Notes: a model not told the origin generated them from the letters alone. A DNA stretch of 64,000 nt from Gemmatimonas sp. (GCA_965279375.1 OZ257156.1:1024001-1088000), one strand, 5' to 3'; positions 53,039 through 55,249 are shown, counted from the first letter of the stretch. Translations and numbers: made by a program.

Positions 53039-53353
53039 TTAAGCCTCCAGTTGAGCGCGTCGCGAAAAGGCGATCAGTCGCCAATACAACGCCCGAATCT
53101 CGTCGTCGGGCAGTCCGACTTCGCGCGCCAGTGCCGAGGCGCGCGCAACGACGGCCGCCTCGCGTGCCGGATCGGTGATCGGCTGCCCCATGGCCGTCTT
53201 CACGCGCCCAACGGCGCGTGAAAGGGCCATGCGTTCGGCGATCGCGTTGATGATCGTCGCATCGACGCGCTCGATCTCCGCGCGCAGCTCGGCCAGCGTG
53301 CGCTCGCGCGGCGCAGGCGCCGGCTTTCGCTCGGGTAGCAGCGCGGCGCTCAT
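53039..53353 (-). CDS. Chorismate mutase (AroQ type)
   Basis: LAELRAEI.RVD......AER......GRVK......DP.RE motif. ATGA overlap with the aroF stop. Confidence 0.9.
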   Translation of the reverse strand: MSAALLPERKPAPAPRERTLAELRAEIERVDATIINAIAERMALSRAVGRVKTAMGQPITDPAREAAVVARASALAREVGLPDDEIRALYWRLIAFSRRAQLEA

Positions 53354-54408
53354 GCCGCGCTCCGCGCAGCGATACCCGCATCCACGCACACGTCGCGCCC
53401 CACCGCGTTGGCGACTGCCTTGAGCTGATGCATCATCGCCGCAAATGCAGCCGGCTCCTGTGACTGTTCGCCGTCGGAACGCGCCTTCGCTGGATTCGGA
53501 TGCACTTCCACGATCAAGCCGTCCGCGCCGGCCGCAATGGCGGCCATCGCCAACGGTGCGACGAGATCGGCGCGTCCGCCTGCGTGACTCGGATCCACGA
53601 TCACGGGCAGATGCGTCTCGCGCTTGAGCACCGGAATCGCCGCCACGTCCATCGTATTGCGAGTCGCCGTTTCGTACGTGCGAATGCCGCGCTCGCAGAG
53701 CATCACATCACCGTTCCCCTGCGCCATGATGTACTCGGCGGCCATCAGCAACTCGGTGATGGTGCCCGAGAGGCCGCGCTTGAGCAGGACTGGACGCTGC
53801 ACCTTTCCGACTTCGGTGAGCAGCGGGAAGTTCTGCATGTTGCGCGCCCCGATCTGCAGCACGTCGGCGTAGGCGGCCACCAGCTCCACCTGTCGCGGGT
53901 CCATCACCTCGGTCACGATCGGCATCCCCGTTTCGGCGCGCACATCGGCGAGCAGTTGAAGACCCGGCTCGCCCATGCCCTGGAAAGCGTATGGCGAGCT
54001 GCGCGGCTTGAAGGCGCCGCCGCGGAGCATGCGGGCACCGGCCGCCTGAACCGCGTGCGCGGTCTCATGCAGCATCTCTCGTCCTTCCACCGAGCACGGT
54101 CCGGCAATCACCACGATCTCGCGTCCGCCAATCACGGTCTTGGCGGGGTCGCCGAAGCGAATGTGCGTGTTGCTCAGCGAGTACTCGCGCGAGGCCAGCT
54201 TGTACGGCTTGGTCACCGGCATCACCCGCTCGACACCGGGGAGCGCGGCCAGCGCCATCTCGTGCAGCTTGGCCTCCTCGCCGATGCAGCCGACGATGGT
54301 GCGCTGGTCACCACGGCTGACGTGGGCGCGGAGACCCGCTTGCTCGACGTACTCGACAATGCGGTCGAGGGCGTCCTGGGAAATGTTGGCGGCGGTCACG
54401 ATGATCAT
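53350..54408 (-). CDS. aroF: DAHP synthase, type I-beta with N-terminal ferredoxin/ACT-like regulatory domain
   Basis: [44 protein letters not shown] and DPSHA motifs. Confidence 0.95.
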
Positions 54409-54458
54409 CGAGCTCCTCTGGGGATTGGGTATCCGCGGGACTCGTGCAGGCCGGGCCG

Positions 54459-54497
54459 CAAACGACGCGAGGCCCGTGCTTTTGCACAGGCCTCGCG
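54459..54497 (-). terminator. Attenuator terminator hairpin upstream of aroF
   Basis: mRNA CGCGAGGCCUGUGC-AAAA-GCACGGGCCUCGCG (14-bp stem, one GU) followed by UCGUUUG. Confidence 0.75.
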
Positions 54498-54517
54498 GTA
54501 GTCAGGATTCTCAGCGC

Positions 54518-54601
54518 TTAGTCGCGCGCAGTCCGATCGCCGTGGCCCATGCTGGACGGCGTAAAATAAAATCGGCTGGCGGAGTAGAGCGCGGAGTTCA
54601 C
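54518..54601 (-). CDS. Phe/Tyr-rich attenuation leader peptide, MNSALYSASRFYFTPSSMGHGDRTARD (27 aa)
   Basis: GTG...TAA ORF with TAC and TTT-TAT-TTT codons, directly upstream of the hairpin and aroF. Confidence 0.8.
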   Translation of the reverse strand: MNSALYSASRFYFTPSSMGHGDRTARD

Positions 54602-54607
54602 GACCGC

Positions 54608-54636
54608 AGCCTAGGGCGCCAACGCGATTCTGTCAA
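54608..54636 (-). promoter_or_regulatory. Sigma70-type promoter for the [12 protein letters not shown] transcript
   Basis: TTGACA (54636-54631), 17-bp spacer, TAGGCT (54613-54608). The leader GTG begins 7 nt after the -10. Confidence 0.8.
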
Positions 54637-54649
54637 TATCTTTGCCCGC

Positions 54650-55249
54650 ATGCACGAATCCGCCGCAATCCCCGCCAGCGACGGCGCGTCCAACGCGCCG
54701 AGCGTTGCGTTTCAGGGAGAACTCGGCGCGTTCAGTGAGCTCGCCATTCGAACGTACTGGCCACACGGTGCGGTCGCGGTACCCTGCGCGACCTTCCCAG
54801 ACGCGATCGCTTGCGTGGTCGCGGGCGAGGCGGAGTTCGCGGTGATTCCGGTGGAGAATGCCATCGCCGGTATGGTGCACGCGGGACGAAAGGCGCTGGC
54901 GGACGCCGCCGATCAGATCGTGCAGCGCCACGAGGTGCGTGTCCCCATTCATCTGTGTCTCATGGCACCACGCGGAGCGTCGCTCGCTGAGCTTCGCGTG
55001 GTGCGCAGTCATCCGGTCGCCCTTGCGCAGTGTCGCATCTTTTTTGCGCGGCACGGCTGGCTGGAGCCTACTCCGCACGCAGACACGGCGGGAGCTGCGC
55101 GTGATGTCGGCGCGCGCGGCGATCGCACCGAAGGCGCCGTCGCTGGTGAAGCGGCCGCAACACGATACGGATTGGACATCATTGCGCGACATGTTGAAGA
55201 CGTGCCGGCCAACTGGACTCGTTTCGTCATCGTCAGCGCCACCGCGTGA
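54650..55249 (+). CDS. pheA: Prephenate dehydratase, catalytic domain only (no ACT domain)
   Basis: VAFQGE.GAFSE.A, VIPVEN...G, SHPVALAQC, DTA.AA and N.TRF motifs. Stops 7 residues after TRF. Confidence 0.85.
   Translation: MHESAAIPASDGASNAPSVAFQGELGAFSELAIRTYWPHGAVAVPCATFPDAIACVVAGEAEFAVIPVENAIAGMVHAGRKALADAADQIVQRHEVRVPIHLCLMAPRGASLAELRVVRSHPVALAQCRIFFARHGWLEPTPHADTAGAARDVGARGDRTEGAVAGEAAATRYGLDIIARHVEDVPANWTRFVIVSATA

Follow-up and report, generated by a model that had tools for sequence, protein, structure and literature searches.

A predicted leaderless attenuator sensing tyrosine and phenylalanine ahead of a DAHP synthase-chorismate mutase operon in Gemmatimonas, with counterparts across the Gemmatimonadota

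How might a Gemmatimonas cell match the expression of its aromatic pathway genes to its supply of aromatic amino acids? The question is raised by a 241-bp gap between two divergent genes in a complete 5.3-Mb Gemmatimonas-group genome, in which a promoter, a leader frame and several hairpins lie on the minus strand ahead of a DAHP synthase gene. An earlier note on this DNA had proposed that the gap holds an attenuator reading both Phe and Tyr codons on a leaderless transcript. Taking the window (the whole stretch of 64,000 nucleotides that was analysed, with positions counted from its first letter) together with related genomes, we conclude from sequence comparison that the element is very probably a ribosome-mediated attenuator of transcription that responds to Tyr and Phe and controls a DAHP synthase-chorismate mutase operon, the transcript being predicted to be leaderless, and that expression of the operon is likely raised when Tyr and Phe run short. 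The features on which this reading is built are as follows.

54631..54636, minus strand: -35 hexamer TTGACA; TTGAC(A/T) and the 17-nt spacer are kept in 14/14 complete same-genus upstream regions
54608..54613, minus strand: -10 hexamer TAGGCT (TAnnnT type); TAnnn(T/A/C) is equally spaced in relatives
54518..54601, minus strand: leader frame of 27 codons from GTG to TAA (54520-54518), with the translation V/M-NSALYSASRFYFTPSSMGHGDRTARD-stop
54584-54586, minus strand: Tyr6 (TAC), inside the leader frame
54563..54571, minus strand: sensor codons TTT-TAT-TTT, that is Phe11-Tyr12-Phe13; 3-5 aromatic codons are likewise placed in relatives
54537..54562, minus strand: hairpin 1:2 (anti-antiterminator), ACGCCG..CGGCG(A), enclosing segment 2; -11.0 kcal/mol
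54544..54552, minus strand: segment 2, GCAUGGGCC, which is like the terminator 3' arm and pairs with the 5' arm
54514..54527, minus strand: small hairpin GCGC-GACUAA-GCGC, whose loop contains the stop codon, read from the sequence
54484-54497, minus strand: terminator 5' arm, within which segment 3 lies
54466..54497, minus strand: terminator hairpin 3:4 of 14 pairs, CGCGAGGCCUGUGC-AAAA-GCACGGGCCUCGCG; -29.8 kcal/mol
54459..54465, minus strand: weak U-tract in the tail UCGUUUG; the genus has UCGUUU or UUGUUU here, and distant relatives a UUUUUGUU-like sequence
54413-54418, minus strand: GAGGAG ahead of the DAHP synthase, read from the sequence
53350..54408, minus strand: DAHP synthase, type I-beta, 352 aa (PF00793, 5.9e-85; PF18152, N-terminal ferredoxin-like, 5e-22)
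53039..53353, minus strand: chorismate mutase type II, 104 aa from ATG (PF01817, 80.5 bits)

Read on the minus strand, the positions that the earlier note had given for promoter, GTG, 27-codon frame, hairpin and tail all hold, translation returns Tyr6 and Phe11-Tyr12-Phe13 encoded as TTT-TAT-TTT, and the pairing that it had drawn between segment 2 and the terminator 5' arm can form at every position (GCAUGGGCC, 54552-54544, with GGCCUGUGC, 54492-54484; 9/9 pairs, two of them G-U). The control unit that it had named, aroF with chorismate mutase, stands as two overlapping genes and not as a fusion: the ATG of the former shares bases with the TGA that ends the synthase gene (ATGA), so that the two overlap, and a chorismate mutase gene lies behind the synthase in most related loci. 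The reading that chorismate mutase is absent here, the synthase carrying no fusion domain, was rejected, as the separate overlapping gene was found by family search and in the sequence.

The two promoter hexamers are separated by 17 nt, and the GTG (54601-54599) begins 6 nt past the -10. TAGGCT is identical to TATAAT at 3/6 positions, and a consensus promoter scan and a terminator scan at the leader each returned 0 calls. The proposed arrangement of a promoter directly before the start codon recurs in relatives, with the start codon 5-9 nt past the -10 in the 45 loci that pass a strict filter described below, a distance that leaves no space for a Shine-Dalgarno sequence. The leader transcript is predicted to be leaderless, with its first base at or beside the GTG. 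The start codon is GTG at the Gemmatimonas locus and in one relative, and ATG in the other same-genus relatives. Four public sequencing runs contain the stretch, and none of them is listed as RNA.

On the other side of the gap, the divergent gene encodes a prephenate dehydratase (54650-55249, plus strand) that has the PDT domain only, without an ACT domain. Its ATG has TATCTT 7 nt ahead of it, immediately next to the leader -35 (54637-54652, plus strand), and no good -35 was seen for this gene. By eye, TATnnT also stands 5-6 nt before the prephenate dehydratase ATG in six relatives (L002, L003, L005, L010, L012 and L014), and from this placement the prephenate dehydratase transcript looks leaderless as well.

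Hairpin 1:2 begins directly after the aromatic run. For the whole 147-nt leader the folding z-score is -4.06, and none of 200 shuffles (0/200) folds as well. Taken by itself, the 2:3 duplex is only modestly better than mononucleotide shuffles: at the Gemmatimonas locus it reaches -19.8 kcal/mol against a shuffled mean of -15.1 kcal/mol, with 15/300 shuffles as good, and over 38 leaders the median z is -1.8 and none beats all 300 shuffles. The fold does respond to the ribosome in the way that the earlier note had expected. When a stalled ribosome is masked on the run in a transcript reaching to segment 3, 2:3 forms in 38-39/40 leaders, while in the free full-length leader the terminator forms in 39/40, and the Gemmatimonas leader folds likewise in both states. 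In single-sequence folds the 5' end also pairs over a long range with bases past the stop codon, a helix that is absent from the RNAalifold consensus.

From these parts we propose the following mechanism. The transcript would begin with the GTG or right next to it and be entered by a ribosome from its 5' end. If Tyr- or Phe-tRNA were scarce, the ribosome would stall at codons 11-13 with its front edge covering segment 1 (ACGCCGUCC); segment 2, thereby freed, would pair with the emerging segment 3, no terminator would form and the polymerase would enter the operon. With a good supply, the ribosome would translate as far as the stop codon, which lies 23 nt beyond segment 2. While it stands there, between segments 2 and 3, segment 1 would pair again with segment 2 in its wake; the 3:4 hairpin of 14 bp would form next and end transcription. 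The re-pairing behind the ribosome is the weakest step of this scheme.

It is also the step at which the proposal departs from the earlier note, which had full translation masking segment 2. That part fails, since segment 2 ends 23 nt ahead of the stop codon and a ribosome at the stop codon would leave it uncovered. Termination under sufficiency more likely depends on renewed 1:2 pairing once the ribosome has passed than on masking of segment 2. Among truncated leaders folded without a ribosome, 2:3 is preferred in 17/40 and segment 2 is paired upstream in 22/40, and with the stop-codon footprint alone masked, 2:3 is preferred in 28/40. Equilibrium folding is therefore insufficient to account for termination under sufficiency, and kinetic or steric arguments are needed.

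Should the proposed mechanism operate, the entry to the shikimate pathway and the Phe/Tyr branch point would be co-regulated by the charging of Tyr- and Phe-tRNA, adding to a likely feedback through the ferredoxin-like domain of the enzyme. In the Thermotoga enzyme, this domain is described as binding Phe or Tyr (PMC5526877). Given the ferredoxin-like domain on the synthase, protein feedback and mRNA attenuation would answer to the same two amino acids.

The element recurs in relatives, whose frames keep their aromatic codons (14/14 in the genus and 43/44 in the phylum), a check that the earlier note had asked for. The closest public DAHP synthase loci (77-85% identical) are from Gemmatimonas sp. 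or Gemmatimonadaceae bacterium entries. We assembled a genus set from the regions upstream of the orthologous synthase in 15 genomes, of which 14 were complete (proteins 73-85% identical), and all 14 keep TTGAC(A/T)-N17-TAnnnN, the frame, the aromatic run and the hairpin. Their start codons lie 6-8 nt past the -10, apart from an additional in-frame GTG of L010 at a distance of 1 nt, and their frames have 26-32 codons with YYF, YYYF, YFYF, FYY, YWYF or WYYY. The fifteenth region, cut by a contig end, retains everything from the aromatic run onward. The phylum set consisted of 80 further loci found by protein, 44 of them from Gemmatimonadota with sufficient upstream DNA. At least three consecutive aromatic residues are present in a short frame at 36/44 of these Gemmatimonadota loci, and seven of the remaining eight have an aromatic-rich leader in which the run is interrupted (for example MTTHATSYLAYFTSFWGYPPGSR), which brings aromatic-rich leader frames to 43/44 Gemmatimonadota DAHP synthase loci. 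The sole exception, L051, has its synthase directly behind a same-strand ACT-domain gene, a different operon layout.

A strict test, which combined the promoter, a start codon 5-9 nt past the -10, a frame of 12-45 codons and an aromatic run, was passed by 45/89 upstream regions, all 45 from Gemmatimonadota, and by 0/30 loci from other phyla; a loose test found four chance-like frames among 32 control loci from other phyla. As the related sequences are kin, such counts overstate their independence. As a sign that the element exceeds chance, conservation is far more telling than the fold z-score.

The aromatic codons themselves vary among TAT, TAC, TTT, TTC and TGG in relatives, yet remain aromatic. 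Across 1065 residues of 40 non-redundant leaders, Tyr makes up 12.8% and Phe 5.8%, compared with 1.9% and 3.1% in the long frames of the Gemmatimonas genome. Tyr is present in 40/40 leaders, Phe in 30/40 and Trp in 15/40, and by this measure Tyr is the constant predicted sensor residue across the phylum, while dual sensing of Tyr and Phe in the Gemmatimonas genome itself is plausible. TTT accounts for 41/62 leader Phe codons, against 16% in likely genes of the Gemmatimonas genome, and TAT for 54/136 leader Tyr codons, against 26%; these figures give a hint that the leaders favour the rarer U-ending codons, in a comparison that mixes genomes.

Both alternative stems covary, which had been put forward as a check on the proposal. 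In A2, an alignment of 43 non-redundant leaders that begins at the final aromatic codons and extends through the tail of the terminator, the terminator stem 3:4 has 86.3% of its cells paired, as opposed to 27-52% in slid registers, with both partners changed in 9/14 pairs. The antiterminator stem 2:3 has 86.1% of cells paired, as opposed to 22-44% in slid registers, with 7/11 pairs double-changed. It is seen most clearly where the terminator stem has another sequence, in L053, L054, L065-L070, L067 and L078, and segment 2 is altered in step with segments 3 and 4. For hairpin 1:2, 15 same-genus sequences gave 94.1% of cells paired, as opposed to 32-44% in slid registers, in a stem that is mostly invariant, so that its covariation is thin (2/9 pairs double-changed).

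Spacing is fixed as well. The distance from the aromatic run to the core of segment 2 is 11 nt in 33/40 leaders, which is roughly how far ahead a ribosome would reach if the final codon of the run occupied its A site. From the end of segment 2 to the stop codon there are 20 or 23 nt in 34/40 leaders, with 23 nt at the Gemmatimonas locus. In the small hairpin around the stop codon, GCG is invariant in the genus (alignment A1), and similar GCGCG-nCUGA-CGCGC hairpins occur in many relatives across the phylum.

How the stalled ribosome would act on transcription deserves closer consideration. The UCGUUUG tail is weaker than the U-tracts of distant relatives, which have runs of 5-8 U, and weaker than that of a His leader in the same genome. 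Because the U-tract has decayed in the genus, the same Tyr/Phe stalling could there lead to Rho-dependent or factor-assisted termination, or to a change in mRNA stability or translation, in place of intrinsic termination. The tail itself, the terminator scan that made no call, and the genus-wide UCGUUU or UUGUUU at the position of those longer U runs would all agree with such an output. We consider it improbable, however, given that the genus, no less than other lineages, retains a covarying, G+C-rich hairpin of 14 bp with which segment 2 competes, likewise with covariation, and that the GAGGAG of the synthase is not sequestered by the hairpin.

Other readings would take the codons out of the mechanism altogether. 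The leader RNA is strongly structured (z = -4.06) and some stretches of the frame show conservation of the nucleotides themselves, as would be expected of a riboswitch-like or regulator-bound RNA that binds a ligand or protein and in which the reading frame is incidental. The aromatic positions, however, vary in nucleotides while staying aromatic and in frame with a promoter-proximal start phylum-wide, the same scaffold carries His codons ahead of hisG, and the leader has no Rfam family match (seven matches at E up to 10, none of them a leader family, the best at 22.7 bits against a threshold of 52), all of which makes a binding RNA quite unlikely. Slightly less likely again is a small protein acting by itself, with the hairpin as the ordinary terminator of a small gene. 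Conserved frame length (about 22-32 codons) and a conserved tail (..GxG..VR-D/G) would suit a functional product, whereas the N-terminal halves are not conserved, the conserved residues outside the aromatic run coincide with RNA pairing segments and change together with them, and the genes that the element immediately precedes always belong to an amino acid pathway corresponding to its codon run. Ribosome-mediated attenuation in response to Tyr and Phe accordingly is our preferred reading, and we use it in the comparisons below.

The closest known system is aroR-aroF of Corynebacterium glutamicum, likewise a Phe-Tyr-Phe leader before a DAHP synthase gene with a ribosome-stalling reading. The AroF of C. 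glutamicum is a type I-alpha enzyme, in contrast to the I-beta synthase with a ferredoxin-like domain in Gemmatimonas. The aroR leader peptide upstream of aroF contains Phe-Tyr-Phe (Neshat et al. 2014 via PMC11802643; Mentz et al. 2013, PMC4046766), and according to a review, transcription was raised by Phe limitation only, not by Tyr limitation (PMC11802643). In the Gemmatimonadota, by contrast, Tyr is kept without exception in the set of 40 leaders. The two systems, one from Actinomycetota and the other from Gemmatimonadota, were compared by description, and they likely arose independently. The earlier note had known of no leaderless mixed Phe and Tyr attenuator on a DAHP synthase operon in this lineage; the lineage is indeed new, but the kind is not, given that a Phe-Tyr-Phe leader on a DAHP synthase gene is already known from C. 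glutamicum.

In enterobacterial leaders the frame is preceded by untranslated RNA that includes a Shine-Dalgarno sequence, and the stop codon is placed so that the terminating ribosome covers segment 2. The Gemmatimonas frame, unlike these, starts 6 nt past the -10 and extends 23 nt beyond segment 2. On the proposed reading, regulatory codons in a short frame, alternative 1:2, 2:3 and 3:4 hairpins and a stall that frees segment 2 are shared with the enterobacterial trpL, pheL and hisL leaders. The classical leader-peptide attenuators trpL, pheL-pheA and hisL are named in PMC11802643.

Leaderless sensor frames have precedents too, in the three-hairpin attenuator described for C. glutamicum ilvBNC (PMC11857589) and the polycysteine leaderless short ORFs of mycobacteria (bioRxiv 10.1101/834739). 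In both, as is predicted for Gemmatimonas, the frame lies at the mRNA 5' end and supply is sensed through the progress of the ribosome; they differ from the Gemmatimonas leader in the amino acids read, in belonging to Actinomycetota and in their unrelated sequence. Within openly available full texts, we found no described attenuator of Gemmatimonadota; the papers listed there that name both the phylum and leader peptides, judged by their titles and opening lines, concern signal or RiPP leaders or other subjects. The element would extend leader-peptide attenuation, in its leaderless form, to a phylum that is common in soil and freshwater and little studied. In a Shine-Dalgarno survey (PMC10783764), Gemmatimonadetes have a low value of 22 in a table column of uncertain meaning; if this were the percentage of genes with a Shine-Dalgarno sequence, it would fit frequent leaderless or Shine-Dalgarno-less starts in Gemmatimonadetes.

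The architecture is not confined to aromatic codons. A strict scan of the Gemmatimonas genome for a promoter with a short frame gave three matches, including the aro leader and a His leader, listed here.

G000:C1:1639298-1639500, minus strand (L115): His leader MITNALRHHHAHHGHGPTGRGAVRVCG, with hisG downstream and, between the two, a terminator whose U-tract is good

This leader starts 9 nt past a TTGACG-N17-TACGCT promoter, and a segment resembling the terminator 3' arm sits 23 nt ahead of its stop codon. His leaders on the same scaffold precede hisG also in other Gemmatimonadota (L136, L139 and L140). Direct pairwise alignment of the aro and His leaders gave 64% identity, which is uninformative in G+C-rich DNA. 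A covariance model built from alignment A2 (R1) matched the aro leader of the Gemmatimonas genome with a score of 89.8 bits and the His leader with one of 23.6 bits; its other matches there (1747456, 4009061, 994446 and 4214013) were rejected as plain terminators or noise.

Among 151 sampled genomes of the phylum, 67 had an R1 match at E <= 0.001, a number that includes partial, terminator-only matches. We examined 28 of the best R1 loci and judged their downstream genes from the first residues of the frames. An FXD-type DAHP synthase follows at 11 of the 28 and a short DAHP synthase at four, an aromatic amino acid hydroxylase at six, hisG at three (behind His leaders), a chorismate mutase at one and a chorismate mutase-prephenate dehydrogenase at one (behind a Tyr-only leader), with two unclear; a Pfam check confirmed 14/14 of the downstream proteins submitted. 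The leaders before the hydroxylase genes, which belong to the biopterin-type family PF00351, hold Tyr and are free of Phe (L119, L120, L122, L127, L129 and L134), and would have Tyr made from Phe on Tyr shortage. We know of no description of attenuation control of an aromatic amino acid hydroxylase. In the Gemmatimonas genome, no hydroxylase of the PF00351 family was found. Across these loci the sensor codons match the target enzyme, as a codon-reading device predicts.

Tentatively, and with somewhat less than even confidence, we suggest that Gemmatimonadota carry one modular leaderless attenuator chassis, which would have been copied and re-coded for various amino acids and targets, and in which a ribosome parked at the stop codon would serve as a steric block. 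It would open with a 5'-terminal start codon and a sensor run. Segment 2 would come at a constant 10-11 nt from the run and the stop codon at a constant 20 or 23 nt from segment 2, and a terminator of the GGCCCGU type would close the element. The variants would comprise mixed Tyr/Phe/Trp runs ahead of DAHP synthase-chorismate mutase, His runs ahead of hisG, and Tyr-only runs ahead of phenylalanine hydroxylase-type genes and chorismate mutase-prephenate dehydrogenase. With the stop codon at this constant distance, the ribosome that terminates there would come to rest between segments 2 and 3 and so provide the block, in contrast to the enterobacterial model, in which segment 2 itself is masked.

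The phylum-wide spread, the shared scaffold with swapped sensor codons and the unusual, distance-conserved stop codon give the element added interest. For annotators, it is a recognisable unannotated element ahead of aromatic and histidine pathway genes. As a natural series in which one scaffold carries varied sensor codons, these leaders could also serve to test how codon choice and spacing set the specificity of an attenuator.

Broader scans of the Gemmatimonas genome added few candidates. A generic scan for a terminator with an upstream segment able to pair with its 5' arm returned 16, of which only the His leader was convincing; it missed the aroF element because of the weak U-tail. A frame with WW at 2646190 was rejected as a leader, being the end of an ordinary gene. 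A relaxed promoter scan for other leader peptides gave eight candidates, including the aro and His leaders. Frames with IVVV, CCC and one of two with WW were rejected, as they had no matching downstream gene. The second WW frame and a frame with QQQ were also among the eight.

Further copies of the two enzymes are encoded elsewhere in the genome. The second DAHP synthase paralogue (50% identical; G000:C1:3202468-3203499, minus strand) follows immediately upon another gene, and no leader frame precedes it. There is likewise a second chorismate mutase domain (G000:C1:3564516-3564752, plus strand; L145), contained in a 401-aa open frame that probably encodes a fusion enzyme.
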